Shown: positions 1 through 39,071 of the stretch, one piece after another
Numbering within the stretch: the stretch's first letter is position 1
How the letters are laid out: every line of letters begins with the position of its first letter
Assembly: GCA_900128565.1 (NCBI GenBank)
Contig: LT635938.1
Span: forward strand, 1 to 39,071
Direction of reading: 5' to 3'
DNA: 39,071 nt
Source of the DNA: Stramenopiles sp. TOSAG23-6
Taxonomy: Eukaryota
Translations under genes and position numbers: made by a program
The notes under the pieces: model-generated
The model's input: only the letters and a program-made list of their open reading frames with translations
What the model was told of the DNA's origin: nothing
Database searches by the model: none

Positions 1-52
1 TTCGTACGAAAAATAAATTCGATTTTTTTGTAAAAAAAAAAATAAAACATAC

Positions 53-1550
53 ATGATATTTTCTGATGAATTTTCTACTACATTATCTACTATTTTTTTT
101 GAATTTTGAATTTGAGATCCTATAGAAATATTTTCTATTCTAATTCTTGTCAAATAACCATGTATTTTGGAAAAATATTTCAAAATTTTTTTACCAAAAA
201 AAAAAAAAATTTGTTAGGTACAAAATTTTTTTACCAAAAAAAAAAAAAATTCGACTTTTTTGTAAAAAAAAAATAATAAAACATACATGTCGACCAAATG
301 GAAGCTCAACTCCTTGAGGTATTTTAGGAATTTTAGGAGGTATTTCAGGAGAAGTAGTGCATTCATTGTAACATGTATCTAAAACTTTTGTCTCTGTAAT
401 AGAATCTAAAGATTTATTCTTTAGGCTTGACAATAATTCCGAATCATTACAATTTTCATCATTTACTACAGTTGTATTAAACACTTGTACTGGTATGTAC
501 ATTCTAGATGTTAGTGAATACACACCAAATACAGGAGCATGATCACTTATATCACAACCTTGAACTTTATGCACTGCTTCATATACATATTTCATATTTG
601 TCTTGTCATTGGCTACTACTGACACTAATCCTACTTGTTTATCATGTTGTTGTTGTTGTTGTTTATCATGTTGTTTATCATGTTGTTGTTTATCATGTTG
701 TTGTTGTTGTTGTGGCATTGGACAAAGGATACCTGGATCATACATATCCTTTTTTGCATCTGAAAAAGAAAGTTGAGAGTAAATAATTCGATCACACCAG
801 CCAGGACAACGTTCTTTGACACTTCTACCTTTATATATGGGTTCTTTATACAACGTACGATAGACTTTTCGTGGCCAATCTACTCGAATCATTTCGATTT
901 CATCATCTTTTTCAAGTTTAATTGGAGATAACGGAACATCATAAATTTCATCATTTTTTACATTTATATGCGCACTCTTTCGTACAGACTGTCTTGGTGT
1001 ATTGCACCAATTGGAGAGATTCTCATTTCTACCTTCATATAGCTTATGTATTGTGAATTTTTTTTTTTTCTGATTTTTTTTTGTTAGGTACAAAATTTCA
1101 TACGAAAAAAAAAAACATTGGAAATGAATTATAAAAACGTACATATGTAGGAAAGAAGTTATCTGCTTTTTTAGGTTCTTTAAACCCAACCCATGCATTA
1201 CCCATTTTCTGATCTAATCGAAAAGTGTCATAATCATCATGTAAATGACGTAATTTTGTCTCACCACCACCGATACAATTTAAAACATTTTCAGTAGTTA
1301 CATGTATTTTGAAAAAATATTATTTTTTTTTTTTTGGAAAAAAAGTTCGTTAGGTACAAAATTTGCTATGAAAAAAAACAATGAAGAAAAAAATCATGAT
1401 GTAAGACATACACTTTCCAATCTGTAATTTAAATCACCCATCCAAACTAAGTTATGAAATTGTTGATTCAAATCAAAATGTTTATCACCAAGTCGATTTC
1501 CAAGTCTATTCATAATATCCGCTATTTGAATAATTCTTGCTGCAGGGTTC
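53..1550 (-). CDS. Inositol polyphosphate 5-phosphatase family protein, partial (exons 1550-1412, 1301-1143, 1045-287, 159-53)
   Basis: Spliced translation contains VWMGDLNYR, GFKE...FFPTYK, PGWCDRIIY and SDHAPV, the conserved 5-phosphatase motifs. N- and C-termini are absent. Confidence 0.85.
635..712 (-). repeat. CAA/CATGATAAA microsatellite encoding Q-rich QQQHDK repeats (mirror about 38360-38437)
   Basis: Tandem tgttgttgt/ttatcatg units; protein reads PQQQQQHDKQQHDKQHDKQQQQQHDKQ. Confidence 0.85.
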
Positions 1551-1614
1551 ATGGATTATGAAAAAATATTTCAATAAAAAATTCGTTAGGTACAAAATTT
1601 CGTATAAAAAATAC

Positions 1615-3513
1615 ATAGACATAAAGCAATGATTGATACTGTCGTTGACTTGATACAACTAATTACGTTTACGACAATATTAAAACATATTTGTCTTCTT
1701 TTACCCTTTTTTTCTGTGATGCATGTATTGGTGAAAAATATTTTTTTTTTGATAAAAAATCATTAGGTACAAAATTTCGTATGAAAAAAAACGTTTTGAA
1801 ATGAATGATGAAAACGTACATATTTTTCGAAAATTTAATAAAAAGGTATATATCATTTGTAGTGAAATTCCTATACAAAATGTACCTAATATATATGGGA
1901 GTATTTGACTACATATTGCATTTAATGTTTTTAATGGAAGCGACCACGACATGCTCATTTATTTTGGTAAAATATTTCAAAAAAAATCTAAAAAATTTTG
2001 TTAGGTACAAAATTTCCTATAAAATTCGAAATTGAAAAAAATAAAACATACATTTTACCCAATGAAGGATCATTTAGAAACAAATGTACTAAAAACTTCA
2101 CAAAAGAAAGACTAAAATTTTCAGATAAAGTTATAATTTTTGGATCATTTTTTGTATCATTTTCGTTCCAAATCTTCAATTCAAATACATGTATTTTGGA
2201 AAAATATTTCCAAAAAAAATCGTTAGGTACAAAATTTCGTACGAAAAAAAATTCAAATTTGAAAAAAAATAAAACGTACATACGCAGAAATTCCAATACA
2301 AAATGAAATAAACGCTACAAAAAATGCACTGCTCATAGTTCGAGAATTATATTTGCTATCCACTCCAGAAGAATGTTTGTATGCTCTATTTTGTTTTTTT
2401 CGTAGGAAACAAGTACAAATACATGAAAACAGCCATGTTGGTGAAAAAATATGTCACACAAAAAAAATCGTTAGGTACGGAATTTTCTATAAAAAAAAAA
2501 ACATTGATATTCATCATAAAAACATATAGGATAGACAAAAATCGTCGACCAATGGAATACATAAGCAAATCGTTAGAAGATTAAAAAATGTATAATTCCC
2601 AGTCATAATTATGAGTACCTGCAAGGCTGATTGTGTAACTGCAGCTGTAAGTCTTAAGAAACGAATAAGTATTGTGAAAAAATATTTCAAAAACAAATCG
2701 TTAGGTACAAAATTTCGTATGAAAAAATTAAATTTAAATCTGAAATTCGTGATGAAAATGTACAGGACAAATAATTAATATAGACAGTGGAATTTCTATA
2801 AGTAGGCAAATTCCAACAGAAAGTTGCTGATAAAACGGAGGCAATTGGTGAGCAAACCATGCAAAAGGTGTTGGTATACACTGTGTGGCATAATGATAAT
2901 CAAGAGCAGTCAAGGATTTCCATGTTTTACACCTTGACTGGAGTTTTACTACTCCCGAGAGAAGCATTAACTTAAAAAAAATTAGGCGAAGCAACCAACG
3001 AACTACATGTGAAGGACTTTTACCATTGTAAATTTTTATCCATGGTGCCCATAGAATTGATGCGGCGCCGACCTCTAAAAGTAAAATATCCCACTGAAAA
3101 CTCATGAACGTCCTACCCGTTGAATAAAGTGAGAAATAGGTGATCCACTGAATATACAAAAATACAGCTGGATAGGTTCCTAATAACACAAAAAAGGAAA
3201 CAAGTACACCAAGAAGAGACAATAGCTCATGAAATGTATCAATATCGAAAGCCAAATGATTGTGAAAGATTGCAAGTGTGGTGGGCTGAAAATTTAACGT
3301 ATTCTCAACAAAGAAGGTGATAGGATCTGAAGTCACTGGTATATTTTGTATAGGAATTAAACCATTTTGTTGAGAGTACAGCCCCGGGTACTGCCAAAAA
3401 TATGAAGAAAATGCAATCAAATATACAAAACCAATTGCTCGAAGAAATATCTTTCTTGACAGTACATACGTACTCTTCTTGTGTTCATTGTCATGCTTGT
3501 GCATGGTTACCAT
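1615..3513 (-). CDS. Lipase maturation factor (LMF2-like), 3'-truncated (exons 3513-2764, 2666-2528, 2434-2280, 2188-2052, 1956-1820, 1722-1615)
   Basis: Motifs [49 protein letters not shown] and [18 protein letters not shown]. The C-terminal LMF domain is not present. Confidence 0.88.
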
Positions 3514-11654: not shown

Positions 11655-14522
11655 ATGTGGTATCTAGAGAGCACTGCGAATGCTACGACTGTGTCACAAT
11701 TTTGGTTGGTAGCAGGTAGGCACACGGTGGGCCGAAAGGGAGCAATTGCGTTGGTTAACGACAAGTCTGTTAGTCGTCATCACGCGACGGTTATAGTAGC
11801 TGTTTCATTTGACTGTAAAGACGAACAATCAATTCCAAGTATTCAAATAGAAGATAAATCCAAATTTGGTACAAGTGTAAATGGAGAACGTCTCCAAAAA
11901 GGAGAAACTTACAATCTTTGTGACGGAAGCCTCATCGAGTTTGGCGTTTCGAAGTCTGTGTTTGTATTACGTTGGAAGCCGCTTTTATTATGTGTTTCTC
12001 GTGCAGACAAAGCATCTAAAAAGAGAGTTAAAGTTTTAGCAATGAAAATCGGTGCTCATATCACAAGCGTTTGGTGCAGTCGTTGTACTCATCTGGTTCT
12101 CTGTGGTACATTTGCGATAACGTTCAAAGTAATTTGGGCTCTTCTTCAAAGCAAACCGATTATTACACCTAGATGGCTCAGCGATGTCGCGGGAGGTCAA
12201 CCTACATCGATGAGTAATGGCACAGTACATAAATTACGCACGACTTTACCTCAAATACAATCTTATCTTCCTGAAGGTCAGGAGTCGTATACTTGTCAAC
12301 TATTACCAAATTCTCAGAGAAATCAAATGTTTCAAGGTTTTACTTTTATTTTCACTCATCCTTCAGACTATTCAGATATTGTCGAAGCTGGTCAGGCGCA
12401 AACTATTCGGTTGTTTTTATCTACTGTTGAATGCACAGATGATGATTTTCAAAAGTGGTCTAAAAATGATACATGCTTTGTGTACATTTAAAAAATTGAA
12501 TGTTTTACATAAATTATTTTTCGTACGAAAATTTGTGCCTAACAAAAACAATTAAATTAAAATATTTTTTTCACAATACATGGTTGAACCTATCCAAGGT
12601 CTAGTTCATAGATCCTCACAAATTTCATCCATAACACAGGCTAGTCAAGTATTTGGTGTATCTCATTCTAAAGGGCATTTAAATACATTTTGTTCAGATT
12701 TTATTCAGACTGAGAATTTTAATAGAGCTTCAGAAGCAGGAATTGGTGTATTTTCAGAAGGCGATTTCCCAAAGTGTATACTACAAATGATTACCCCAAT
12801 TAAAAAAAACGTAGAAAAAACTGTACACCAAGAGATTATATATGAAAATCCTGTAGGAAAAATGAATAATGAAAAATCCAAAAATGTATCTGTCATGAAT
12901 GCTTGTCGTGTAAATGTAGATAATAAAATAATTCAACAAGTAGAAGATAAAATAATTCAACAAGTAGATAATAAAATAATTCAACAAGTAGAAGAAATCA
13001 ATAATTGCGAAGCGAGTACATCCGTAGACAAACCTAACACACATAATACTACAGTGAAAACTTCATCGAAGAAAGATATTTTGTCGTCTTCGACAAAACA
13101 AATAACAAGAAGTGCAAGGAAGAAACGATGTGGGAGGAATGGACGCCGAGTCGGTCATATTGGTAAGAGAAAACCTATTGAAGTATTTACAAATGATAAT
13201 AAAAGCGATGTAAACGATGTGCAAAATAGTGCAGAGGACAAAGAGAGTGATAAAATTGTGAAGGAGTGTGTTGAAAGTACCAAAGTTGATTGTGGCAATG
13301 ATGAAGTTGTACCATCACTAGTACAAGATAATGAAGTTATACCATCACTAGTACAAAATAATGAAGTTATACCATCACTAGTTCAAGATAATGAAGTTAT
13401 ACCACCACTAGTTCAAGATAATGTAGTTATACCACCACTAGTTCAAGATAATGAAGTTGTACCATCACTAATACAAGATAATGAAGTTATACCACAACTA
13501 GTAATTGATAGCAATAAAAATAAATCTGCATGTCGTTGGCAAACAAAAAAGCGTCATCGAAATGAAATAGGAAATAAAAGTGAAAATTCTTCAAATGAAA
13601 ATGATTCTGATAATGACGGTTTCATTTCAAAAAAGAGGAAAACTCAATCATCATCATCACAAAAAAAAGGAGGCGACATTCTTGTCGGCGACTTGGAAGA
13701 AATAGATACTCTAAACCCGAGTAATGTTGATAATAGTAGTAATGCGTTTATACCTCCAAATGAGCGAAGACATGTATGTTTTATTTTTTTTTCAATTTCG
13801 AATTTTTTTTCATACGAAATTTTGTACCTAACGATTTGTTTTTGAAATATTTTTCCAAAATACATTTGAACGAAAATGGTCCATGTTGGATCTCGGCAAT
13901 ACACAAAGAAAATACATCGAATAGTTTGAACAGTTTTGATGATGAAAAGAATGTAAAATATGCAAAAGTAATTCCACGACAAATTCATACAAATAATCAA
14001 ATACAATCTAATGATGAAAATGAGGGAAGTGCGATTAAATTTTCTCAGGATCATCGGAAAAATAGTGAGGACTCTGGTACTAATTTTAAAAAATTTCGGA
14101 AAAATTTTTACACAGTTTCTAAACAACATCACAGAGTTGCATTTTGTAGTCCAAGAGAATATGTTATACCTGGAAATGGTTCGGAAGCGTTGCAACGTCG
14201 TCGCAACCAATATGCACACGAGGAGATGCTTGAGCGTGAAGCTGAGGAGCTTTGGGTTTTTGATCAGAGGCAAGTGAAGAAAGCTCCATTATCAAAAGCA
14301 CAACAAGAAAAAGCAGAAAATGCAAAGTCTAAAGCAAAATCTAAAGCAAACGAAGCGAAACAAAACGCAAATGCAATTGATTGGCAACAATTGCGCCGTG
14401 ATGGTTTAGTTCAAAAACAAAAAGTTTCTGTTCTAAAAGCCTTCTTACGCAGCAGAAAGTTAAAAGTTGGAGGTCGGAAGGGTGAATTAGTCGAGAGAGT
14501 TTTAATTGAACTTGGGGGATAA
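11655..14522 (+). CDS. NBS1: Nibrin/NBS1 (FHA-BRCT, Mre11-binding motif) with C-terminal SAP-like domain; exons 11655-12481, 12582-13773, 13866-14522
   Basis: MWYL start, FHA (VGRK...DKSVSRHHA...DKSKFGTSVNG), BRCT (CTHLV...TFKVIWALL...PIITPRWL) and NFKKFRK. The three ORF pieces join in frame on removing two repeat inserts. Confidence 0.88.
12482..12581 (+). mobile_element. Introner-like intron, GT...AT, 100 nt (mirror 26456-26555)
   Basis: tgt|GTACAT...CGTACGAAAATTTGTGCCTAAC...AATATTTTTTTCACAATACAT|g; removal gives F-V-V-E in frame. Confidence 0.75.
12916..12996 (+). repeat. 24-bp coding tandem repeat, about 3 copies (VDNKIIQQ)
   Basis: gtagataataaaataattcaacaa units. Confidence 0.9.
13301..13503 (+). 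repeat. 30-bp coding minisatellite, about 7 copies (DNEVIPSLVQ)
   Basis: atgaagttataccatcactagtacaagata units with point variants. Confidence 0.93.
13774..13865 (+). mobile_element. Introner-like intron, GT...AT, 92 nt (mirror 25172-25263)
   Basis: acat|GTATGT...CATACGAAATTTTGTACCTAAC...AATATTTTTCCAAAATACAT|ttg; removal gives R-R-H-L-N-E. ACAT is duplicated at the borders. Confidence 0.82.
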
Positions 14523-14600
14523 GCTATTTCAAAATTTTCGCACATTTTTTTTTGTTTAGTTTATTTAGTTGCTACTATAAACTTTAATTTGACTAAGTCT

Positions 14601-16991: not shown

Positions 16992-18076
16992 TCACAATTT
17001 TATTTTTTCATGAATTTTATAAATATTCTTCTCTATTTTGTTCATAGCTATTTCTGTAGCATTATACACTTCTTCTTGACTAAGCGATGCATCAATAGGA
17101 TACACTTTAGAATCGTCAATTTCTCTGAAAAGTTCGACTATTGGAAAAGTTTCTTTATAAAATGTGTTGAACCCTATGAAGTGAAAAAATATTTCAAACA
17201 TTTGAAATTCGTTAGGTACGAAATTTTGTATGAAAAAAAAAAAATGAAGTGGATAAACATACTTTTTCTAATTGATAAAATATTATCATCTTCTCTACCA
17301 CTGACTTTCCCTCTTTCTAATAGTCGCCTCTCTAATATCTTTTGATCGCATGTATAGTACAACATACCACTATATTTGATTGTAGGGTTAGGTGCAGTTT
17401 TTCCGACAGAATTTATAAAATTTTCATTTCTCAAAAGCTTCAGTTGATCAATCCAACCAACGAAATTATCCAAATTTCTTGGGAATCCATCCACCAGAAA
17501 GTTTTGTTTATCACTTTGTGCAATTTTTCGTTGAATCAATCGAACAGTCAATTCTGCAGGAACAATTGAGCCATCTTTAATACACTTGGAAATTAAAATG
17601 CCGTCTTGACTCTTGGGATTACATTGTTCTTCTCGTAAACAATCTCCGGCTGAAATGTGAGTAAACTTGGAATATTTTTTTTCTATCAATTTCGATTGAG
17701 TACCTTTTCCAGAACCAGGACCACCAAGTATGAAGACTACCGACTTAATGGGGTGTAAAGACTCTGTTTTAGTTAAGCTCTCCACATCAAAAAACCCTGA
17801 CATACTCAAGTTTTCTTTCATATGAGGTGAAAGCCAGGTAGTAAATTTTTGTGTTGAGCACTCTACATCAAAGAAACCTGACATACTCAAAGTTTCTTGA
17901 ATATGTGGTGAAAGCCAGGTAGTAAAACTTCGTACTTTAGCTGGATCGACATGAGCTTGGAATCTACAGAAACTTCCCGATAAAGATAAAACAGAAGAAC
18001 GTTGTGCGAGATAACTCGAATGAGGTTTCGGCCAGCGACTTAAGAAACGATTGAAGAAACGATTAAACGGCTGCAT
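16992..18076 (-). CDS. UMP-CMP kinase (adenylate kinase family) with N-terminal extension; exons 18076-17263, 17173-16992
   Basis: VFILGGPGSGKGTQS, HISAGDCLR, FLVDGFPRN and, after splicing, GREDDNILSIRK-RFNTF. Confidence 0.9.
17174..17262 (-). mobile_element. Introner-family intron with canonical GT-AG ends, 89 nt
   Basis: aaa|GTATGT...CATACAAAATTTCGTACCTAAC...AATATTTTTTCACTTCATAG|gg; restores the conserved K-R-F-N-T-F. Confidence 0.88.
17781..17926 (-). repeat. 81-bp-period coding duplication (FTTWLSPHxxExLSMSGFFDVE twice)
   Basis: Copies at 17781-17845 and 17862-17926. Confidence 0.9.
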
Positions 18077-24436: not shown

Positions 24437-24514
24437 AGACTTAGTCAAATTAAAGTTTATAGTAGCAACTAAATAAACTAAACAAAAAAAAATGTGCGAA
24501 AATTTTGAAATAGC

Positions 24515-27382: not shown

Positions 27383-27780
27383 AAGCTTCAAATTAGCCAA
27401 GTAACAACACTAACAAGACTTTTCGTGATGAACTCAAAATGTGTAATGTCCAAGACTTAGTTCATTTTTTCTTCTTGAGAGTCTTCTTATCTCTCTATGT
27501 CCTGGATTTTTTGACCGTTTGACTAATAATATTGACTCGAAAGCTCAATTTCAAATTTATTTTTAGGTTTCAAACTTTCAAGTAACACAACACGAAGAAA
27601 GTTTTAGGGAAAGTTTTAAAGAACGGTCATCCATCAACTTTTGCTACCGCTTTGCTACCCACCACCACGAATTCAATTACACAGTAACATAGAAGCAAAA
27701 GGGAAGGTTACGCCATACGTTTCTGTGTACATTCCATTAGGCATACCATATATTAATTCCTTGGTCATATATTACGTGAA

Positions 27781-29064
27781 ATGTATTTTGATTCTTTAAA
27801 ATCATGTCCTGTACCACTAGAACGTAGCCCACTTGGAGACTGTGAAATTCCTTGCGAAGCTCCGTTTATTTCCAAGAGAGATTCCAATAGGATGCTCGTT
27901 CTAGAAACAACCGTTGGGACTATCATTTGCCTTCTTCTAGGATTACATATATTAGCATACTTAATCGATCCCAAATTGAGGAAATTGAGGTCACCGATTG
28001 TGACTTTGATTGTAAGCTTCTTTCTGGTTTTTTCTATAACTCTTCGTGACATTACTGGAGGGGAGCATGGATCATTTTGTTTTGACAACGTATCACACGT
28101 TCAAATGAAAAGGCACGGCTTTAACTCCAAAACTGCACCTTGTATTATACAGGCAACATCTATAGCTTTTTTCACTCTAGTCATGTGCTGTTTATGGTTT
28201 CGAACCGTGTTACAATTTTTCGTAAAGCTAAAAAGTGAAGTAAGGTTAGACCCCTTTCGTTCGTTAGTTTTTTGTTTTCTTTTCCCTCTGATAATAGTAT
28301 CTATCCTTCTTACTTATAAAGCATTTGGGCACACTGAACCAAATAGTTTCTGTTTATTTTTTAGGGGTACTGGGCCTGTGAGATGGGTGTTATTTTTCGG
28401 ACCTATTACATTCATTTGGTTTGTTGGCAACGTTTTGCTCTGTATTTGTTTTATAGAATTAAGAAAAATACAAAAACTTAGAGGTGTGAAAACATGTTGC
28501 TTGGGGCTGACAGGATTTTTGACATTTATGCTTAGTTTCTCTTCGATGGTAGTCCCAATAATGCTCCTAAATCTTTTAAAGGTCTTTCATGTCAAAAGGA
28601 AAGCGAGTGTCTCTTGGCGATCTTGCCTCTTGGCTAATTACCTCAATGGAAATATGAAACCTGCATTGGGCCTTGTTAATAAATCGAGTTTGTGGCAAGA
28701 TTGTATCATTCAAAGTTTTAGAGACCATTCGAATATAAATGATCTAAATGCATCTTTGAAAAGTTGTTCTAAAATGTCTGGATTAATAGACGGAAATGTA
28801 GATAGTCTCTCTAGCAGTGGCTGTGGCTTGATAATTAATAGTTTTCCAGCTTTGTCACTTGCGTATAATTTTATATTCTTCCTTCAAGGATTTCTTATGT
28901 TATATATGTACGGGTATAAAAATGATGTACTATTTTCATGCTGGCGTAGTATGCAACCCACGCAACAGAAAATATCATCGACAAACTGCAACTCAAATTT
29001 AAATGCGGAAGTTTGTAGGAGCATAAATTTAAGCAAGCTTCCTATTAAAAACACAAGGTCTTAA
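27781..29064 (+). CDS. Frizzled/Smoothened-like 7TM receptor, mirror copy
   Basis: Identical translation to 9973..11256. Confidence 0.6.
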   Translation: MYFDSLKSCPVPLERSPLGDCEIPCEAPFISKRDSNRMLVLETTVGTIICLLLGLHILAYLIDPKLRKLRSPIVTLIVSFFLVFSITLRDITGGEHGSFCFDNVSHVQMKRHGFNSKTAPCIIQATSIAFFTLVMCCLWFRTVLQFFVKLKSEVRLDPFRSLVFCFLFPLIIVSILLTYKAFGHTEPNSFCLFFRGTGPVRWVLFFGPITFIWFVGNVLLCICFIELRKIQKLRGVKTCCLGLTGFLTFMLSFSSMVVPIMLLNLLKVFHVKRKASVSWRSCLLANYLNGNMKPALGLVNKSSLWQDCIIQSFRDHSNINDLNASLKSCSKMSGLIDGNVDSLSSSGCGLIINSFPALSLAYNFIFFLQGFLMLYMYGYKNDVLFSCWRSMQPTQQKISSTNCNSNLNAEVCRSINLSKLPIKNTRS

Positions 29065-29143
29065 CTATTGCAAACAATGTAATGCAATTTAATTTTGCTT
29101 TTGTACCAATTTGGTATAATGTAATAAAAATAACTATAGTTTT

Positions 29144-29866
29144 TCATTTATGATTTATCAAATTATTCCACAAAAACTGACATTTGTTTCTATCTAATCG
29201 CATTTTAGTAACTTGCCGTATAAAATTCTGACTTTTCATTCCATTTAAACGTAGTAACATTTTCCCTGTAACTACCTCTGCATGCAACGCTGCTAGAGCT
29301 GAGTATTGTGCCGCTCGCCAACTAGCGACTTTTGAATTAACGACATTTGTAATACCCTCATCGATGGTTCTATGAAATTTAGAATCATGTAGATCAAAAT
29401 CATCCACTTGATAAGTAACATCACGAGAATTGCGAAAGTATTGATTAGTTTGAGTAGAACCAAACTTAACATTTCTTTGTATGTGTCGTGATGGTATATC
29501 TTCCATGAGTTTCGTGTCTTTCTTGATTTTTCCAGCTCTTTGTTGCACTATTAAAATTTTCTCCTCCTTCGTGAGATAAACTTGACTTCTGAATGGTTTT
29601 ATTACTTGCGTACGTGGCTTTGGAAGTTCTAAGAAACGATCCGTGGAAGCATTTTGGTAAGCTATATCAGGGCATAAGTCTGGGTACGAAATATCCATAT
29701 TCTGTTTTACTGGAAATTTTGTTTTTGGAAGTTTTTCTGATGGACTTGGAACTGGAAGTTTTCCTTTGAGAAAACGAAGTTCACTCAACCCCTCCATAAC
29801 AAAATTTGAACTCTCATCTATTTGTTGCATATTTTTGTGCAGTTTATGTTTGATAAGGCTATTCAT
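29144..29866 (-). CDS. Hypothetical protein, mirror copy
   Basis: Identical translation to 9171..9893. Confidence 0.55.
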   Translation of the reverse strand: MNSLIKHKLHKNMQQIDESSNFVMEGLSELRFLKGKLPVPSPSEKLPKTKFPVKQNMDISYPDLCPDIAYQNASTDRFLELPKPRTQVIKPFRSQVYLTKEEKILIVQQRAGKIKKDTKLMEDIPSRHIQRNVKFGSTQTNQYFRNSRDVTYQVDDFDLHDSKFHRTIDEGITNVVNSKVASWRAAQYSALAALHAEVVTGKMLLRLNGMKSQNFIRQVTKMRLDRNKCQFLWNNLINHK

Positions 29867-30085
29867 TTTCTCATTTTGAAATAAAAAATGAACCAAATGA
29901 TTTGTTTGTATTACCTTTTGGGTTTTGCATGATGCATATAAATGAACTCAAATTACTTTCAACCGACACAACAGTTACATTTCTGGTCGAAAAGCAGGTT
30001 CGTGCAATTAATCGGAAATAAATAGTCAGCGAGTGAAAAACTAGGATTAGTGTAAGTACAAGTTTCTCTGACCTATAAACACAGA

Positions 30086-31606
30086 ATGGGAGAATCTAAA
30101 CCAACTCCAGCGATAATGCATGCAGATGATTCAGAAAAAGAGCTTGCATCTAGTCTATTTGGTGGTCCAGCATTGAAATTTGGGGAGGAGAGTGACAGTA
30201 TGTCTGACTCTGAGTCTGGAAATGAAGGTGATGCAATTTTTACAGGTGGTACTTCAGAAACAATAAACAACGACTTTCGAAATTCATCAAAATCAGGCGG
30301 TAAGAGAAAGCTGTGTTTAAAACCTGCATGGAATGATTCAGATGATGATAGAGAGAGTTTTGATATTAGTGCAACAAACCGGCTTCGGAAACTTCGAAAG
30401 ACAGAAGAAGAAACAGTTGTATCAGGTGCTGAATACGCGCGTCGTCTTCGTTCGCAATTTTGTAAAATGAACCCTGCGACGTCGTGGGCCGCCATACCTG
30501 AAGTGCCCCCAAGTCTCAAGTTTGCTTCTGCCATTGCTGATGACATGACGAATGGTCTGGCTGTAGATTTGTTTAAAACATCTGCCTCAATGCTGAGGTC
30601 TTCAACTGCTGCAATTAGAAAGGAACAACTCTCGGTATTGCGAGTAAAAGACGCAAATGCTGAAGAAATTTCTGATGCTGTTGTGCAATCTGTAGAATTT
30701 CACACGAGACGCTCGTTGATGCTTACTGCTGGATTGGATAAAAAATTGAGACTATTTGATATAGATGGAAAGTTTAATAGAAAAATTCAAGGTGTTGTAT
30801 TTCCAGACATGCCCATCAGGACTGCAACATTTTCAGGTTGTGGTTCTTCAGCAGTGGGATCAGAACAAATAATTGCAACTGGCCGTCGACCATTCTTTTA
30901 CACAGTTGATATAGCATCAGGTTCTGTTCTTAAAATTCCGCGTATTGCTGGTCGTAAAGAGAAATCTCTTGAAAAGGTTGTGGCTTCGTCAGATGGTCGT
31001 TGGATTGCTTTTTTGGGTAATGACGGATATGTGATACTAGTTTCAGGAAAAACAAAACAATGGATTGCCAACCTCAAAATGAACGGGGCTGTTCGTGCTG
31101 TTGCTTTTACGCCTGATTGTTCTGAGTTACTCACTGTTGGTACTGATGGAGATGTGTACAGATGGAGTCTGAATGACAGAAGATGTATTCACAGGCACGC
31201 TGATGAAGGTGGAATGACAGGCAGTGCAATTGCAGTTTCTCCAAATGGTAAATATTACGCAATTGGATCAGAAGCAGGTGTAGTTAACATATATGATGCA
31301 GAAAAGGCATCTAAAGAAGCTACACCTGTACCAACCAAAGCTATTATGAATTTAACCACAGCCATTGATGGTTTAACGTTTAACCATGATTCACAGTTGC
31401 TTTCAATTCGGTCTCAACGAATTAAAGATCAATTTAAAATTGTTCATTGTCCAAGTTTCACAACTTACCAAAATTGGCCTACTTCAAACACACCTTTAGG
31501 GTACGTTAGTTCTACTTCATTTAGCCCACATAGTGGCTTTCTTTCTATAGGAAATGACAAAGGCAAGGTTTTATTGTACAGACTTCAGCACTACACCCAG
31601 GCTTAA
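30086..31606 (+). CDS. UTP18: UTP18, mirror copy
   Basis: Identical translation to 7431..8951. Confidence 0.92.
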   Translation: MGESKPTPAIMHADDSEKELASSLFGGPALKFGEESDSMSDSESGNEGDAIFTGGTSETINNDFRNSSKSGGKRKLCLKPAWNDSDDDRESFDISATNRLRKLRKTEEETVVSGAEYARRLRSQFCKMNPATSWAAIPEVPPSLKFASAIADDMTNGLAVDLFKTSASMLRSSTAAIRKEQLSVLRVKDANAEEISDAVVQSVEFHTRRSLMLTAGLDKKLRLFDIDGKFNRKIQGVVFPDMPIRTATFSGCGSSAVGSEQIIATGRRPFFYTVDIASGSVLKIPRIAGRKEKSLEKVVASSDGRWIAFLGNDGYVILVSGKTKQWIANLKMNGAVRAVAFTPDCSELLTVGTDGDVYRWSLNDRRCIHRHADEGGMTGSAIAVSPNGKYYAIGSEAGVVNIYDAEKASKEATPVPTKAIMNLTTAIDGLTFNHDSQLLSIRSQRIKDQFKIVHCPSFTTYQNWPTSNTPLGYVSSTSFSPHSGFLSIGNDKGKVLLYRLQHYTQA

Positions 31607-31698
31607 TAGAATGATTATATAGTATTGCTACTGTAATAAATATAAAACAAAACATATATTTTGATTTTTTGGATTATTCTTTTTATTGATAGATTATA

Positions 31699-34600
31699 TT
31701 ATGAAGATTCTGTAGGAACTATTTCTGGCGATTCTGATAATTTAGTGATTGTATTGAATCTATCTAACAAAAACGCATTGTATGACTTTTGAGATCTATT
31801 CATGTCGCCTAATATGCCACTTGCAGTCTCATCCTCATCTGTTCCACCAATAATACTTTGAAGTATTCTAAAACGCTCTTGCTTGTTTGTGACTCTTTGT
31901 TCATCCCATTGCGTCCAAAACTCTTTCATCCCTTCAAGTTGCTTTTTTCTTGATGCTTTTACGTCATTCCATTCGCCTACGGTGATGACGGAAACTTCAT
32001 CAGGGGCAGAATTTGATGCAATATATTTCAGTTCAATATTTGGTCGCATGTTTGAACTTGGAGAAGCATCTTCATTTCCTTCAGTACTTCCTTCAGTATT
32101 TATTTCGGTATTTGTTTCAGTATTGCTATTTGAATTTCTTTCATCAAAATATTTCTTTGCATTCTCTGCGCGACCTGGAGAATTTTTCTCCCAGAGATCA
32201 CGAATATTATTGAATAAATCTTCACGCTTCCTACATGGTGTAGCGGTAACTGCAATCTTACTATTCATAGTAAGTTTCCAACTGAGCTCATCAATGCTCG
32301 AAATAGGACTTGATTCTGAGTCTTCACCACCACCATCGACATCTTGTCCACCTTTTTCCCAATAGGGAGATTCTGAACTCCACTTCGATGGAACTAAAAA
32401 CCTTTCTGCATCGAAACTAGCTTGTATTAAAACTTCTTTACCTTTCGGACCAAAACCAGGTACATACAGTAATTCTGCTGAACCCTTGCCACGTTTAGAT
32501 ACAACAACGAAATCGTCAGATACACCACCATCACTACGAACATATTTACATACTGGATGTTCGGGTAAAATATCATCTTGGTCACTTTGGTTTTCTTCCA
32601 GTACCATAAGAACATTCAATTGAACATAAATTGATGGGTCAGATACCGAAAGTCGCAGTGCAAGGTGCTGATTGAAAGATGTTTCTTCTTCATCATCACC
32701 AGTTGGCGATGTTATTCGTAATCGAAAGAATCGCTTGTACTTATTTGGTTGGTATACTCCAAGAACAGTCTTCAGTTTATCAAAATTAACTGGGACACAA
32801 TCCAATAATGGGTCGCTACTTAATATACTCATTCTCCATTTACTCCCAGGCAAATCTTTCACAGAGTTTTCATACGTTGCTACAAGGCAATACCCTTCCG
32901 AATTTGCAGGGAGATTTCGAATAGACATCTCCAAAGATCCCATGGATGTCTTTGTACCAGTATCTCTATCAATGATTGATAATCGCACGTATTGTTGCCA
33001 TATATGATCCGACATATGCAATGTAGCACCGACAGAAGTACCACTTTGCTCTGGAACACGAAATACTTGGGCTCCAAGAATGCGCCAACTATTATTAGAA
33101 CCATCAACAATACTTTCTTCGACAAAATCCTCATTTTCTACTAGTGAATATTGACTTTTAAATTGTGTCCCGTTCATTCCTGATACATCTTTTAATACTT
33201 TTGTCACCGGACCTAATAAAATAGGGGCATCTGAAAAATATGTCACATTCCAACCCCAAGAGCAGTCAACAGACATACGATAAAAATGTTCGCCAGGAGA
33301 CACATTGAAAGACATAGCAGCAATGTCACCACGTGTACACATCACTTGGTAAGTCTTTGGAGGCACGCACGGCCTCTGTGACCCAAATATTCCATCTTGC
33401 TCTTTGGTCTGTTCCCTCCAAGGACTTCCTTTTATTTCCTCCATAAGCAAAATGTACCCCGTGTGTTTTTCGTCATCTGTGTTCGATTTCAAAGTTGCAT
33501 CTGTTTCAAAGTTTATAACCACACGACTTCCTGTGATACCTCCATCAACCCAAAGCATAGGCGAGTACATTTCCTCGATGCAACTTTCCGCTTCAATGGA
33601 CGCATCACCATCACCTTGACGTATATATCCATCTTCCAAACGTGCATTATTTTTACCTCCTGACTTTACTATAATTGTACTTTGGTTGTCATCACCTTCT
33701 GCAGAAACAGTATCAGTTGTGGGACTTTTCCAATTCCAATGAAAACTTGTTGATACAATATTTGTAGTTTTAGTATTTGTATCAATTTCTGTTTCCGTAG
33801 TATCATCATCTTCCGCCTTTTTCTCAGAAACATTAATATTGGGTGCATTGTGACAGAATACAAGATTTGTTACAGGTGAAAAAGCTTGTAAAATATCACC
33901 GAATGGTACGTCAATATCAGACTCTTCAATTAGTATAAGATTATCAAACATGCGAATAAATTCATCCCATGATATCGATGCCTGATTGTTTTCCTCTGAT
34001 TGCGCGCTAATATCAAGATTATTCAAAGCCCCAGGTTTCGCAAGACACGCAGCTTTTAATGCAAGCTGCATATCATCTTCATGCAACATGTCAACAAGCT
34101 CTGTTTGAAGTACAGACTCCTTCTTTCCATCAACTGGAGACAGAGTATCAAAAGCTCGGCGAATTTCGTGTCTCCACATCGCATAGTTAATACTTCCTTG
34201 TATCTTTATTGATTTTGGTTTTACCATTGACACGCCATAAATGCAACCAACTTCTACACCATTGACATTGGTGCTATCAGTACATAGTAGGCAGAGTAAT
34301 CTTGGAACTCTAGTTTTATTTTCATTCGTAGAGTCTTCATTGTCGTTCTGCCCGGTACTTTCAGACGCATCCGAATCAATTTTGTCAATATCAGGATATC
34401 CTGTCGCTTTCAGTTGCACCGGGATTGATGCTTGTAAAGGACCTAACGTATATGGCTCGAATACCCATCCAGTGAGTCTTCGCAACACAGTTGGACTTGT
34501 AGCATCATTCACAATAGTAGTAGCACGTTGTGAAGCTGCCACTTTATAGAGAGCTTTAGCAAGAATAAGTGGCCAAATCTCACCAGCATCCATTGATACT

Positions 34601-35307
34601 GGGAATAGGCAGTTCCCCAAGGCGTCTACAGGAACGCGATCGTCAATTTCGACACATCGCCACGCACCACTTACAAACAAACGCACAAAGTATCTTCCAG
34701 TGTTACTTAGTTTTGGCAAGGCGTTTTCGTCTAATTGAGGATGAATTAATTCCCATAAAAAAGACCCGTTTTTGACAAGTTTTGAATGATTACCTACTAA
34801 CTCCAATTGTGAAGCTAAAAGTTTTGCAGCGTCACTGCTTGCTGCCACTAACTTACGCGGTAACATTTTTACTATCGTATTTGCAACATATATTGGTTTA
34901 GCAACAGCGTAAGTAATTTTGTCTTCAATTGGTGCTACTACATCTTCATCTTCTGTATCTTTTGTTTCATCCTTTTTTTCCTCCAAAGTTTCATTATCTT
35001 TTCCTACAGTTTCTGTAGTATTATCAGATGTATCGGCATTTTGACTTCCATCCACTGCCTCGGATGTGTTTGCATCGCCTGCTGAATTAGATTCTTCCTT
35101 ACTGCGCTTTAGTGCAGCCAATTCCTTCGGTCTAACCCACTCTGAAATTTGACACTCAAGATTCGCTGGAAGCTCAGGCAAACCCTGGGGATCTTCAAAA
35201 GGAGAAGCTTCTTCGTTTGCTTCTTCGTTGGGTATCTTTGAGACGTCCCATTCTGGCAATAACTGATGGGGAATGATATCGTCTACTAATATTGGTGGTA
35301 CCACCAT
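31699..35307 (-). CDS. Androglobin-like / calpain-like protein, mirror copy
   Basis: Identical translation to 3730..7338. Confidence 0.7.
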   Translation of the reverse strand: MVVPPILVDDIIPHQLLPEWDVSKIPNEEANEEASPFEDPQGLPELPANLECQISEWVRPKELAALKRSKEESNSAGDANTSEAVDGSQNADTSDNTTETVGKDNETLEEKKDETKDTEDEDVVAPIEDKITYAVAKPIYVANTIVKMLPRKLVAASSDAAKLLASQLELVGNHSKLVKNGSFLWELIHPQLDENALPKLSNTGRYFVRLFVSGAWRCVEIDDRVPVDALGNCLFPVSMDAGEIWPLILAKALYKVAASQRATTIVNDATSPTVLRRLTGWVFEPYTLGPLQASIPVQLKATGYPDIDKIDSDASESTGQNDNEDSTNENKTRVPRLLCLLCTDSTNVNGVEVGCIYGVSMVKPKSIKIQGSINYAMWRHEIRRAFDTLSPVDGKKESVLQTELVDMLHEDDMQLALKAACLAKPGALNNLDISAQSEENNQASISWDEFIRMFDNLILIEESDIDVPFGDILQAFSPVTNLVFCHNAPNINVSEKKAEDDDTTETEIDTNTKTTNIVSTSFHWNWKSPTTDTVSAEGDDNQSTIIVKSGGKNNARLEDGYIRQGDGDASIEAESCIEEMYSPMLWVDGGITGSRVVINFETDATLKSNTDDEKHTGYILLMEEIKGSPWREQTKEQDGIFGSQRPCVPPKTYQVMCTRGDIAAMSFNVSPGEHFYRMSVDCSWGWNVTYFSDAPILLGPVTKVLKDVSGMNGTQFKSQYSLVENEDFVEESIVDGSNNSWRILGAQVFRVPEQSGTSVGATLHMSDHIWQQYVRLSIIDRDTGTKTSMGSLEMSIRNLPANSEGYCLVATYENSVKDLPGSKWRMSILSSDPLLDCVPVNFDKLKTVLGVYQPNKYKRFFRLRITSPTGDDEEETSFNQHLALRLSVSDPSIYVQLNVLMVLEENQSDQDDILPEHPVCKYVRSDGGVSDDFVVVSKRGKGSAELLYVPGFGPKGKEVLIQASFDAERFLVPSKWSSESPYWEKGGQDVDGGGEDSESSPISSIDELSWKLTMNSKIAVTATPCRKREDLFNNIRDLWEKNSPGRAENAKKYFDERNSNSNTETNTEINTEGSTEGNEDASPSSNMRPNIELKYIASNSAPDEVSVITVGEWNDVKASRKKQLEGMKEFWTQWDEQRVTNKQERFRILQSIIGGTDEDETASGILGDMNRSQKSYNAFLLDRFNTITKLSESPEIVPTESS

Positions 35308-35523
35308 TGTAACCTACGATGTTTATTCAATTTCGATATGCAATGGAAAACAAGCCACAGGCAACAAAAATCAAGATAGATACTGTATTTTAGACTTCAT
35401 TTTTCGAAGAAGTGAAACGGTCATTCTGTTCCAGAATTCGTGATTTTCAAATGATTTAATTATCAAAAAATATTCAGAATGCTACAAAAATTTTATCAAG
35501 ACTTAGTAGTAGATTAAAATTAA

Positions 35524-37422
35524 ATGGTAACCATGCACAAGCATGACAATGAACACAAGAAGAGTACGTATGTACTGTCAAGAAAGATATTTCTTCGAGC
35601 AATTGGTTTTGTATATTTGATTGCATTTTCTTCATATTTTTGGCAGTACCCGGGGCTGTACTCTCAACAAAATGGTTTAATTCCTATACAAAATATACCA
35701 GTGACTTCAGATCCTATCACCTTCTTTGTTGAGAATACGTTAAATTTTCAGCCCACCACACTTGCAATCTTTCACAATCATTTGGCTTTCGATATTGATA
35801 CATTTCATGAGCTATTGTCTCTTCTTGGTGTACTTGTTTCCTTTTTTGTGTTATTAGGAACCTATCCAGCTGTATTTTTGTATATTCAGTGGATCACCTA
35901 TTTCTCACTTTATTCAACGGGTAGGACGTTCATGAGTTTTCAGTGGGATATTTTACTTTTAGAGGTCGGCGCCGCATCAATTCTATGGGCACCATGGATA
36001 AAAATTTACAATGGTAAAAGTCCTTCACATGTAGTTCGTTGGTTGCTTCGCCTAATTTTTTTTAAGTTAATGCTTCTCTCGGGAGTAGTAAAACTCCAGT
36101 CAAGGTGTAAAACATGGAAATCCTTGACTGCTCTTGATTATCATTATGCCACACAGTGTATACCAACACCTTTTGCATGGTTTGCTCACCAATTGCCTCC
36201 GTTTTATCAGCAACTTTCTGTTGGAATTTGCCTACTTATAGAAATTCCACTGTCTATATTAATTATTTGTCCTGTACATTTTCATCACGAATTTCAGATT
36301 TAAATTTAATTTTTTCATACGAAATTTTGTACCTAACGATTTGTTTTTGAAATATTTTTTCACAATACTTATTCGTTTCTTAAGACTTACAGCTGCAGTT
36401 ACACAATCAGCCTTGCAGGTACTCATAATTATGACTGGGAATTATACATTTTTTAATCTTCTAACGATTTGCTTATGTATTCCATTGGTCGACGATTTTT
36501 GTCTATCCTATATGTTTTTATGATGAATATCAATGTTTTTTTTTTTATAGAAAATTCCGTACCTAACGATTTTTTTTGTGTGACATATTTTTTCACCAAC
36601 ATGGCTGTTTTCATGTATTTGTACTTGTTTCCTACGAAAAAAACAAAATAGAGCATACAAACATTCTTCTGGAGTGGATAGCAAATATAATTCTCGAACT
36701 ATGAGCAGTGCATTTTTTGTAGCGTTTATTTCATTTTGTATTGGAATTTCTGCGTATGTACGTTTTATTTTTTTTCAAATTTGAATTTTTTTTCGTACGA
36801 AATTTTGTACCTAACGATTTTTTTTGGAAATATTTTTCCAAAATACATGTATTTGAATTGAAGATTTGGAACGAAAATGATACAAAAAATGATCCAAAAA
36901 TTATAACTTTATCTGAAAATTTTAGTCTTTCTTTTGTGAAGTTTTTAGTACATTTGTTTCTAAATGATCCTTCATTGGGTAAAATGTATGTTTTATTTTT
37001 TTCAATTTCGAATTTTATAGGAAATTTTGTACCTAACAAAATTTTTTAGATTTTTTTTGAAATATTTTACCAAAATAAATGAGCATGTCGTGGTCGCTTC
37101 CATTAAAAACATTAAATGCAATATGTAGTCAAATACTCCCATATATATTAGGTACATTTTGTATAGGAATTTCACTACAAATGATATATACCTTTTTATT
37201 AAATTTTCGAAAAATATGTACGTTTTCATCATTCATTTCAAAACGTTTTTTTTCATACGAAATTTTGTACCTAATGATTTTTTATCAAAAAAAAAATATT
37301 TTTCACCAATACATGCATCACAGAAAAAAAGGGTAAAAGAAGACAAATATGTTTTAATATTGTCGTAAACGTAATTAGTTGTATCAAGTCAACGACAGTA
37401 TCAATCATTGCTTTATGTCTAT
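35524..37422 (+). CDS. Lipase maturation factor, 3'-truncated (exons 35524-36273, 36371-36509, 36603-36757, 36849-36985, 37081-37217, 37315-37422)
   Basis: Six exons join into one stop-free frame when five repeat inserts are removed. Confidence 0.88.
36274..36370 (+). mobile_element. Introner-like intron, GT...TT, 97 nt
   Basis: cct|GTACAT...GTACCTAAC...CACAATACTT|att; gives IICP-IRFLRL, colinear with LMF2-type FFAPIRRLRL as recalled. Confidence 0.8.
36510..36602 (+). mobile_element. Introner-like intron, AT...AT, 93 nt
   Basis: cct|ATATGT...GTACCTAAC...CACCAACAT|gg; gives DDFCLS-W-LFS and removes an in-frame TGA. Confidence 0.72.
36758..36848 (+). mobile_element. Introner-like intron, GT...AT, 91 nt
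   Basis: tat|GTACGT...CCAAAATACAT|gta; gives SAY-VFELK. Confidence 0.8.
36986..37080 (+). mobile_element. Introner-like intron, GT...AT, 95 nt
   Basis: aaat|GTATGT...CCAAAATAAAT|g; gives GK-M-SMSW. AAAT is duplicated at the borders. Confidence 0.78.
37218..37314 (+). mobile_element. Introner-like intron, GT...AT, 97 nt
   Basis: tat|GTACGT...GTACCTAAT...CACCAATACAT|gc; gives RKI-C-ITEK. Using the first downstream AG would create TAA. Confidence 0.8.
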
Positions 37423-37521
37423 GTATTTTTTATTTTTTTTTTACAAAAAAATCGAATTTTTTTTTCGTACGAAATTTTGTACCTAACGAATTTTTTATTG
37501 AAATATTTTTTCATAATCCAT
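37423..37521 (+). mobile_element. Introner-like element forming the LMF / 5-phosphatase chimeric junction (99 nt here, 64 nt in the mirror at 1551-1614)
   Basis: tat|GTATTT...GTACCTAAC...CATAATCCAT|ga; flanking exons belong to different protein families and are out of phase. Confidence 0.75.
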
Positions 37522-39019
37522 GAACCCTGCAGCAAGAATTATTCAAATAGCGGATATTATGAATAGACTTGGAAATCGACTTGGTGATAAACATTTTGAT
37601 TTGAATCAACAATTTCATAACTTAGTTTGGATGGGTGATTTAAATTACAGATTGGAAAGTGTATGTCTTACATCATGATTTTTTTCTTCATTGTTTTTTT
37701 TCATAGCAAATTTTGTACCTAACGAACTTTTTTTCCAAAAAAAAAAAAATAATATTTTTTCAAAATACATGTAACTACTGAAAATGTTTTAAATTGTATC
37801 GGTGGTGGTGAGACAAAATTACGTCATTTACATGATGATTATGACACTTTTCGATTAGATCAGAAAATGGGTAATGCATGGGTTGGGTTTAAAGAACCTA
37901 AAAAAGCAGATAACTTCTTTCCTACATATGTACGTTTTTATAATTCATTTCCAATGTTTTTTTTTTTCGTATGAAATTTTGTACCTAACAAAAAAAAATC
38001 AGAAAAAAAAAAAATTCACAATACATAAGCTATATGAAGGTAGAAATGAGAATCTCTCCAATTGGTGCAATACACCAAGACAGTCTGTACGAAAGAGTGC
38101 GCATATAAATGTAAAAAATGATGAAATTTATGATGTTCCGTTATCTCCAATTAAACTTGAAAAAGATGATGAAATCGAAATGATTCGAGTAGATTGGCCA
38201 CGAAAAGTCTATCGTACGTTGTATAAAGAACCCATATATAAAGGTAGAAGTGTCAAAGAACGTTGTCCTGGCTGGTGTGATCGAATTATTTACTCTCAAC
38301 TTTCTTTTTCAGATGCAAAAAAGGATATGTATGATCCAGGTATCCTTTGTCCAATGCCACAACAACAACAACAACATGATAAACAACAACATGATAAACA
38401 ACATGATAAACAACAACAACAACAACATGATAAACAAGTAGGATTAGTGTCAGTAGTAGCCAATGACAAGACAAATATGAAATATGTATATGAAGCAGTG
38501 CATAAAGTTCAAGGTTGTGATATAAGTGATCATGCTCCTGTATTTGGTGTGTATTCACTAACATCTAGAATGTACATACCAGTACAAGTGTTTAATACAA
38601 CTGTAGTAAATGATGAAAATTGTAATGATTCGGAATTATTGTCAAGCCTAAAGAATAAATCTTTAGATTCTATTACAGAGACAAAAGTTTTAGATACATG
38701 TTACAATGAATGCACTACTTCTCCTGAAATACCTCCTAAAATTCCTAAAATACCTCAAGGAGTTGAGCTTCCATTTGGTCGACATGTATGTTTTATTATT
38801 TTTTTTTTACAAAAAAGTCGAATTTTTTTTTTTTTTGGTAAAAAAATTTTGTACCTAACAAATTTTTTTTTTTTTTGGTAAAAAAATTTTGAAATATTTT
38901 TCCAAAATACATGGTTATTTGACAAGAATTAGAATAGAAAATATTTCTATAGGATCTCAAATTCAAAATTCAAAAAAAATAGTAGATAATGTAGTAGAAA
39001 ATTCATCAGAAAATATCAT
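37522..39019 (+). CDS. Inositol polyphosphate 5-phosphatase, partial (exons 37522-37660, 37771-37929, 38027-38785, 38913-39019)
   Basis: WMGDLNYR, PTYK, PGWCDRI and SDHAPV fall in one frame after insert removal. Confidence 0.85.
37661..37770 (+). mobile_element. Introner-like intron, GT...AT, 110 nt
   Basis: agt|GTATGT...GTACCTAAC...CAAAATACAT|gta; gives NYRLES-VTTE. Confidence 0.8.
37930..38026 (+). mobile_element. Introner-like intron, GT...AT, 97 nt
   Basis: tat|GTACGT...CACAATACAT|aag; restores the conserved PTY-K motif. Confidence 0.82.
38786..38912 (+). mobile_element. Introner-like intron, GT...AT, 127 nt, with internal 31-nt direct duplication
   Basis: acat|GTATGT...CCAAAATACAT|ggt; gives FGRH-GYLTR. 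The next several AGs are out of phase. Confidence 0.8.
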
Positions 39020-39071
39020 GTATGTTTTATTTTTTTTTTTACAAAAAAATCGAATTTATTTTTCGTACGAA
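39020..39071 (+). mobile_element. Introner-like element truncated by the window end
   Basis: cat|GTATGTTTTATTTT...TCGAATTT...TTCGTACGAA. Confidence 0.78.

Follow-up and report, generated by a model that had tools for sequence, protein, structure and literature searches.

The DNA analysed here is contig LT635938.1 of assembly GCA_900128565.1 from Stramenopiles sp. TOSAG23-6, a stretch of 39,071 nt that we call the window. It carries repeated copies of a short intron-like element with a conserved core of about 20 nt, which an earlier note on this DNA had taken for an unusually long branch-point region read by a specialised partner. The window is eukaryotic DNA whose G+C content runs from 27 to 40% and which contains long open reading frames (ORFs). 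A Pfam scan of the 14 largest ORFs detected calpain/FAP42, WD40, FHA plus BRCT, SAP and LmjF365940-type deaminase domains (the last with WW/IQ/B-box), together with adenylate kinase, EamA, LMF1 and a partial inositol-phosphatase-like domain.

Positions 1-16115 and 22922-39071 form the two arms of an inverted duplication that is near-perfect and encloses a unique centre (16116-22921). The arms are 100% complementary apart from one 35-nt difference inside one element. The DNA read sets that best match the window are two runs from 2015, both very small and from one organism, together with seawater metagenomes. The duplication is probably an amplification or assembly chimera of a single-cell genome.

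The repeated element and its copies

A search of the window with the 20-nt motif returned 22 matches at three or fewer mismatches against 0.02 expected, and none of 100 shuffled sequences reached 22. Twenty of the 22 form ten mirror pairs of the inverted duplication. For an independent set we dropped the ten mirror matches and a match at 18313, where two divergent genes are separated by DNA with a core-like fragment but no element ends, and added the degenerate copy 36560, giving 12 element copies (Table 1). These lie in at least four genes (LMF1-like, phosphatase-like, FHA/BRCT and adenylate kinase), and all 12 are in sense orientation to the interrupted ORF (binomial p=0.0005). This uniform orientation supports the earlier suggestion that removal from RNA is likelier than excision from DNA. 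The motif was also correctly located: CGTACGAAATTTTGTACCTAAC occupies 36794-36815 and GTACGAAATTTTGTAC occupies 36795-36810, around the palindrome and TACCTAAC listed in Table 1.

All copies belong to one family of 89-127 nt. From 5' to 3', the element consists of GTA[TC][GA]TTTT, a T-rich, subfamily-specific 5' interior, a T-run, the core TTTCGTACGAAATTTTG-TACCTAAC, CG or CA, a T/A-run of variable length, GAAATATTTTT and the 3' end [CT]CA[AC]AATACAT. There are two subfamilies, which have the core and the 3' block in common and differ in the 5' interior.

Table 1. Element copies in the window and the parts of copy 36808
Feature	Position	Strand	Remarks
Element copy 36808	36754..36848	+	starts GTATGTACGT; in-frame intron 36758-36848, GTACGT...ACAT, 91 nt; LMF1-like gene
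Palindrome TTTCGTACGAAA	36791..36802	+	12 nt, perfect; left half of core; two CpGs
TTTTG linker, palindrome to branch motif	36803..36807	+	4 changes in 60 cells
TACCTAAC, predicted branch site	36808..36815	+	putative branch A 36814; 34 nt from 3' end in this copy
3' block GAAATATTTTTCCAAAATACAT	36826..36848	+	AT end, no AG
Copy 36330	36274..36370	+	in LMF1; GTACAT...ACTT, GT..TT, 97 nt; boundaries from frame and LMF1 profile
Degenerate copy 36560	36510..36602	+	ATATGT...ACAT, AT..AT, 93 nt; core TATAGAAAATTCCGTACCTAAC
Copy 37030	36986..37080	+	GTATGT...AAAT, 95 nt; passes over an internal AG 13 nt after branch A
Copy 37268	37214..37314	+	starts ATATGTACGT; GTACGT 37218 or ATATGT 37214, depending on downstream frame
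Copy 37480	37419..37521	+	weakened donor GTATTT; AT 37421..AT 37521 or GT 37423..CA/GA; mirror lacks 35 nt
Copy 37716	37661..37770	+	GTATGT...ACAT, 110 nt; phosphatase-like part
Copy 37982	37926..38026	+	starts ATATGTACGT; frame needs GTACGT 37930..ACAT 38026, 97 nt
Copy 38852	38786..38912	+	GTATGT...ACAT, 127 nt; internal duplication
Divergent copy 12536	12482..12581	+	FHA/BRCT gene; GTACAT...ACAT, 100 nt; core CGTACGAAAATTTGTGCCTAAC; mirror 26456-26555(-)
Copy 13825	13774..13865	+	FHA/BRCT gene; GTATGT...ACAT, 92 nt; mirror 25172-25263(-)
Adenylate kinase copy	17174..17262	-	GTATGT...CATAG, 89 nt; AG usable in this copy alone
Mirror duplicates of the nine copies in 36274-38912	160..2763	-	not independent

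Intron boundaries and reading frame

Ten copies have clear reading frames on both sides. Taking out the stretch that begins at the G of GTAYRT and closes with the final ..AT preserves the frame in nine of the ten at one aligned register, for which chance would give (1/3)^9; the tenth, in the adenylate kinase gene, is in frame through an AG 2 nt further on. Seven of the nine are GT..AT introns (copies 12536, 13825, 36808, 37030, 37716, 37982 and 38852), copy 36330 is GT..TT and copy 36560 is AT..AT. These frames support the lax termini that had been proposed from the sequence. A GTATGT, GTACGT or GTACAT donor is usable and in frame in nine of the ten testable copies, and one copy starts with ATATGT.

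The frame singles out one donor in two copies with more than one candidate. In copy 36808, removal from the GT at 36758 to the AT at 36848 is in frame, and removal from the GT at 36754 is out of frame. Both this copy and copy 37982 carry two overlapping donors (RTATGTACGT), of which the inner GTACGT alone is in frame. Of the three copies with ATATGT, the one that begins at 36510 is present as described and has an A at +1. The other two need not use the A: the frame of copy 37982 requires the internal GTACGT, and that of copy 37268 permits either start.

Eleven of the 12 copies end in AT or TT at the aligned 3' position (AT in 10 of 12), with no AG and hence without the YAG of major-type introns. 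The GT..TT copy 36330 has no AG near its 3' end, and the Pfam LMF1 profile runs across it without a residue lost or gained (36274-36370; profile positions 1-116 close exon 1, and position 118 falls on residue 2 of exon 2). Six copies (13825, 38852, 36330, 12536, 36560 and 37716) have no in-frame AG within 40 nt downstream; in copies 13825, 38852, 36330 and 12536 the next two AGs both shift the frame. The register slides by 1-4 bases where the flank repeats the element end (AT, ACAT or AAAT), and GT..AT gives the most uniform ends. The element ends read ATGTAT...ATACAT, with direct repeats of 2-5 nt at the borders and short inverted ends of about 4-9 nt, and AT precedes the donor in six of the 12 copies, or in seven if copy 37480 starts at GT 37423. 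Repeats as short as these are not diagnostic of terminal inverted repeats or of a target-site duplication.

Two simple rules for the 3' cut were rejected. A fixed distance from branch motif to end does not fit the observed 34-54 nt, and the first AT or CAT after the branch cannot be the acceptor: earlier ATs are present, and one copy has no CAT. The longest distance, 54 nt, occurs in copy 38852 (38786-38912), where a T-run plus GGTAAAAAAATTTTG stands on both sides of the branch motif.

Several observations on neighbouring genes bear on boundaries. Within 35524-39071, splicing copy 37268 from GTACGT makes the LMF1-like frame run into a partial inositol-polyphosphate-phosphatase-like part, which covers only positions 145-182 and 234-286 of the Exo_endo_phos2 profile and would be either a fusion or a truncated second gene; with the other boundary choice for this copy, LMF1 stops near 37368. 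At 19152-19254, a 103-nt GT..AG intron, without the family core and without CTAAC, could join two EamA ORFs in frame. If it is real, the organism has ordinary AG-ended introns too.

The duplication and the centre of the window gave three further observations. The 35-nt difference between the arms lies at 1604-1616 and 37433-37456; the sequence is absent from the left-arm element copy, which thereby loses the T-run and the start of the palindrome. The duplication doubles all features of the arms and truncates a deaminase gene copy at 14601-16700. Positions 19964-24436 encode a 1,490-aa protein with IQ, B-box and WW domains and a C-terminal LmjF365940-type CDD/CDA-like deaminase domain.

Conservation within the core

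Changes from the family consensus were counted as cells, that is, positions times the 12 copies. TACCTAAC is changed in 2 of 96 cells and is exact in 10 of the 12 copies, and the TTTTG linker in 4 of 60. The palindrome has 18 changes in 144 cells when all positions are counted by edit distance. Position by position, its four CpG positions are changed in 19 of 48 cells and its other eight positions in 0 of 96. Elsewhere in the element, the 5' end (CpG-type positions 4-5 masked) has 4 changes in 84 cells, the GAAATATTTTT block 11 in 132, five of which come from one copy without the block, and the 3' end 11 in 132 with two subfamily consensuses allowed.

The earlier note had described the core as far better conserved than the rest of each copy. 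For the non-CpG positions of the core this is correct: 6 of 252 cells are changed (2.4%) versus 26 of 348 (7.5%) in the other alignable blocks pooled (Fisher p=0.006). For the whole core it is not. Its CpGs are the most variable alignable sites of the element (19/48 versus 6/252, p=2e-12), and the 5' end is conserved nearly as well as the core. Nor is the palindrome upheld within the conserved motif, since the perfect 12-mer is kept in only 3 of the 12 copies. The roughly 20 conserved bases are a branch motif under evident constraint together with a flank that is either hypermutable, at CpG, or unchanged so far.

Changes from CG to TG or CA also occur at the donor (GTACGT, GTATGT, GTACAT) and after the branch motif (AACGA, AACAA, AATGA). 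Over 16116-39071, CpG is mildly depleted (observed/expected 0.86), and TG and CA stand at 1.17-1.18, a possible sign of CpG methylation or of some other mutation process specific to CpG in this lineage.

Splicing signals and their possible reader

We compared the element with the signals of the two spliceosomes. A GTRNGT-like donor and a CTRAY branch motif, both of the major type, are found; the latter reads CTAAC in 11 copies and CTAAT in one, with a putative branch nucleotide. The minor-type 5' motif RTATCCTT is not found, as the 5' ends read GTA[TC][GA]TTTT or ATATGT, and neither is the minor-type branch motif TCCTTRAY near the 3' end: TACCTAAC lies 34-54 nt away, with T-runs between. Neither the donor (here GTAYGTTTT) nor the branch site supports minor-type introns. 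Donor and CTAAC core both match the major type; the lack of AG does not. An Rfam scan gave no match, and hence no spliceosomal RNA, in the window at the gathering score and none at E<=1 in 16000-39071, which includes all unique sequence.

Our preferred reading, with a probability of roughly 0.55, is that the motif is the core of a young, high-copy introner-type element and combines a strict U2-type CTAAC branch site with an inherited palindromic left half. On this proposal, (TTTTG)TACCTAAC would be the branch site, and its core, CTAAC, would be one such as the major spliceosome ordinarily uses. The near-invariance of the branch motif would follow from the make-up of these introns: most are AG-less and the distance from branch to end varies, so that the donor, the branch motif and the element's 3' end are the sole remaining signals. 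The palindrome TTTCGTACGAAA would be inherited element sequence, perhaps of use in spread at the DNA level, and after insertion it would be held neither as a palindrome nor as a hairpin, changing only, and often, at its CpG steps. We infer splicing at the RNA level, with A36814 as the branch point and U2 as the reader.

The block could instead be read as a whole. A lineage-specific reader of the entire core of about 21 nt, either a variant U2 or minor-type small nuclear RNA (snRNA) or a protein of the SF1/U2AF kind, might license AG-less introns. In the snRNA form, its branch-binding stretch would pair with GTACCTAAC and with the bases upstream of it, and such a reader would keep AAATTTTG and the non-CpG positions of the palindrome fixed even in old, decayed copies. 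The low rate of change at non-CpG core positions (6/252 versus 26/348) agrees with this, as do the AT at the 3' end in 10 of 12 copies and the A at +1 in at least one. GT-AT and AT-AT termini are on record as rare minor-type introns of animals (bioRxiv 10.1101/2022.09.24.509304), and the divergent U2AF paralogues of Fritillaria offer a precedent for a protein adapted to odd intron ends (bioRxiv 10.1101/2025.08.15.670264), as far as the accessible text of both reports goes. However, neither the minor-type 5' motif nor a close spacing of branch and end is found, and the core CpGs vary in 40% of cells while the host frame stays intact, so that a reader of the full 20 nt must tolerate these changes. 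We consider such a reader rather unlikely.

Quite improbable, in our judgement, is a private splicing code in which the nearly invariant core of about 21 nt (..TA..AAATTTTGTACCTAAC) would be read by a lineage-specific factor that, together with the element's 3' end, would permit an AG-less cut. This factor would be either an altered reader of the branch site or a protein linked to the element, and the host would have adapted to a transposon that spreads its own branch signal. Extended pairing of U2 with the bases upstream of CTAAC was dropped as a candidate and not counted as evidence. The invariant branch-binding hexamer of U2 pairs with CUAAC and would leave bases further upstream unpaired.

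The earlier note had taken the length of the block as a sign that a specialised partner reads it. CpGs in the left half are free to vary, the palindrome is lost in 9 of 12 copies and no compensatory change accompanies the loss; the length of the block therefore calls for no such partner, and a specialised snRNA is not needed by the data.

RNA structure

Another possibility is that the core forms a hairpin in the RNA, either to display the branch site or to link it to the 5' splice site. The covariation check that had been proposed was carried out for three candidate stems on a gap-free alignment of the 12 cores. The GTAC..GTAC hairpin is paired in 75.8% of cells versus a shuffled mean of 78.0% (500 of 500 shuffles reach the observed value) and lacks compensatory change; 7 of the 11 distinct rows break its outer pair. 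The TTTC/GAAA stem of the palindrome is paired in 90.9% of cells, a value equalled or exceeded by 114 of 500 shuffles, with one cell changed on both sides. The 4-bp UUGU/ACGA stem that encloses ACCUA can pair in 43 of 44 cells (97.7%), which speaks for a hairpin, but 192 of 500 shuffles are as high and it shows no compensatory pairs. With 0, 1 and 0 cells changed on both sides and pairing not above shuffles, the check lends no support to a conserved structure.

Whole-intron folds gave a similar result, with z from -2.49 to +1.00. In three of the 12 copies at most 3 of 200 shuffles matched the observed fold, and these three share no common fold; the remaining nine are unremarkable. The consensus copy is the one that beats its shuffles at z=-2.49, and in it the 5' GUACG can pair with the core CGUAC. 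Across copies, however, pairing of the donor base (Y at +4) with the core is Watson-Crick in just 8 of 12, wobble in two and mismatched in two by a hand tally (Fisher p=0.56). A hairpin is therefore very unlikely as the explanation of the core.

Possible function of the core at the DNA level

The palindromic left half may have had a role in DNA, as a site of the mobile element (for binding of a mobilising protein, or as a structure used in copying) that is kept in master copies and decays after insertion. This is compatible with the right half being a branch site. A core and 3' block common to two subfamilies with different 5' interiors would fit such a role, and so would the dyad symmetry of the palindrome, which resembles the sites of dimeric DNA binders, and the decay at CpG after insertion without compensation. 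A pair of core-like half sites also occurs in intergenic DNA at 18285-18335. In opposition, the scan of the 14 largest ORFs of the window revealed neither a transposase nor an autonomous partner, and the sample is 12 copies only. Cut-and-paste elements usually have their protein sites at the ends and not in the middle, which also counts against this role, and we regard it as unlikely.

The half sites at 18285-18335 are in tandem (CTACGAAAAATTTGCTACC and TAGGAAATTTTGTACCAAAT) between the divergent adenylate kinase and EamA genes, and have no element ends. A fold-back element was rejected: both arms carry T-runs, so pairing is impossible.

The elements could also be removed from DNA, by programmed elimination or by precise transposon excision, with the motif as part of the signal. 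The short inverted ends ATGTAT...ATACAT would suit excision, as would the AT on both sides of 6 of 12 copies, a count that rises to 7 with GT 37423 as the start of copy 37480: where AT stands on both sides, removal of the element plus one AT yields the same product as the GT..AT register. Excision from DNA does not, however, require the sense orientation seen in all 12 copies (p=0.0005), and the element bears a donor-like 5' end and a branch motif. In copy 36808, excision of the ciliate kind, TA..TA with one TA kept, is out of frame by hand arithmetic. Excision from DNA is extremely improbable.

Copy number, reads and searches

Reads from three RNA runs and one seawater DNA metagenome were mapped as contigs on positions 1-20000, which comprise the mirror arm and the centre. 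In the DNA metagenome (8,485 contigs), bins that bear elements reach a summed contig depth of 825-16,726. Of the 23 remaining bins, 22 have a depth of about 1-15, and that at 12007-12673, with a depth of 82, contains most of the divergent copy 12536. This suggests a genome copy number on the order of a thousand, the depth being summed over all organisms in the sample. Long unique DNA contigs end at elements. Contigs of other copies lose their likeness at 13772/13773, at 13866, and at the T-runs that flank the core (2212 and 2251, which correspond to 36825 and 36786 in the other arm). These breakpoints indicate that the repeated unit includes the flanking AT and that the core is an island between T-runs of variable length.

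In the three RNA libraries the excess of elements over exons is the same as in DNA and is thus uninformative about splicing, and no RNA contig listed for 1-20000 reaches an intron border. The check for excised alleles gave no bridging contig: of those listed for the DNA metagenome over 1-20000, none spans an emptied site.

Searches for the family elsewhere returned little. A 16-mer scan of metagenome contigs gave at least 118 loci, none with element features, the pattern being too short for that collection; a 20-mer scan gave 0 loci in viral contigs and one match, by chance, in bacterial metagenome-assembled genomes. The exon end that adjoins 13774 had no match among shorter proteins. A phmmer search of 1.84 billion representative proteins gave 0 matches, and a search with the read-through ORF returned one identical 97-aa ORF only. 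The full-text literature held the motif string only in primers and unrelated sequences among the matches listed, and no description of the element family was found there, supplements lying outside the search.

One public coding-sequence model, P0001, is 97% identical to LMF1 exon 2 and bears a source name of the MAST kind. Compared with 35524-36520, it translates the intron core (..FSYEILYLT..) and omits real exon pieces. As P0001 reads through the intron, it is no evidence on the mature mRNA; evidently, forced canonical splice sites mis-model introns of this kind.

Several of these results weigh against a spliced introner with a U2-type branch site. The ratio of element to exon in RNA is about that in DNA, which fits unspliced RNA or carry-over of DNA and gives no sign of efficient removal, and neither a splice joint nor a lariat is found among the RNA read joints listed, which are cross-matches between copies. 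The copy-number estimate pools contigs from every organism sampled. Compared with the yeast-type TACTAAC, TACCTAAC has one base more, and copies 37268 and 37480 have ambiguous boundaries. Moreover, the non-CpG positions of the left half are well kept too (4/156 versus 26/348 in the other blocks), so constraint may not be confined to the 8 nt of the branch motif; that the copies are young, or constrained in their master copies, is a conclusion drawn from only 12 of them.

Relation to known introns

Introns that derive from transposons, are bordered by direct and inverted repeats and have non-canonical ends have been reported from Amoebophrya (PMC7789003) and in an introner survey (PMC9860276); the comparisons below concern the accessible parts of these sources. 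Like the introners of Micromonas, Aureococcus, Symbiodinium and Chrysochromulina, the family consists of short, near-identical introns scattered over different genes of a marine protist, at positions unrelated to one another, has short inverted ends and a short direct repeat at its borders, and would restore the frame when the element and one copy of the repeat are removed (PMC9860276). Introners of the survey end GY..AG, some with GC or GA donors, whereas 11 of the 12 copies here have no 3' AG, and the best-kept part here is not the termini but an internal block of about 21 nt with the branch motif (PMC9860276).

The introners of Amoebophrya share other features: they are repeated non-canonical introns with direct repeats of a few nucleotides over the exon/intron borders and inverted repeats that join the ends, and public gene models were misled by them, as P0001 was here (PMC7789003). 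Their end motifs are varied, however, their inverted repeats measure 8-20 nt, and the accessible text reports no family-wide internal motif; the family described here has near-uniform GT..AT ends, inverted ends of about 4-9 nt and a strict internal TACCTAAC (PMC7789003). From both groups the family differs in its near-uniform GT..AT ends, very short inverted ends and strict internal branch block.

In Fritillaria, many non-GT-AG introns exist without a minor spliceosome, and the adapted reader is a divergent U2AF protein and not an snRNA; its divergent U2AF paralogues prefer a 3' AU after purine-rich sequence over canonical probes (bioRxiv 10.1101/2025.08.15.670264, accessible part). The element described here likewise has a 3' AU after a purine-rich stretch (..CCAAAAUACAU). 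Fritillaria is, however, an animal with diverse intron ends, for which that part of the report gives no conserved extended branch block, whereas the host here is a protist with one repeated family.

Like minor (U12-type) introns, the elements have a strongly kept branch motif that ends in ..TAAC and tolerate A or G at +1 and 3' ends other than AG. Unlike them, they have no RTATCCTT, and a different branch motif stands 34-54 nt from the 3' end with T-rich tracts between. The relaxed termini shared with rare minor-type subtypes are thus a resemblance and not membership.

Intron-poor yeasts have strict TACTAAC branch sites. The family resembles them in combining a GTATGT donor with a near-invariant ..CTAAC in a compact, intron-poor genome; it differs from them in the one extra C of TACCTAAC, in the lack of an AG acceptor and in the position of the motif inside a repeated mobile element.

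Taken together, what had been described as a single motif of 20 nt splits into a constrained branch site and an inherited palindrome that decays only at CpG. As at least one public gene model translates the core, the protein sets of this lineage contain intron-derived peptides. If removal as GT..AT is true, the family would be a natural series of AG-less introns, which share as signals only the donor, a strict branch motif and the element end. Two questions would then become testable: what selects the 3' cut when there is no AG, and what keeps a mobile intron from harming its host.

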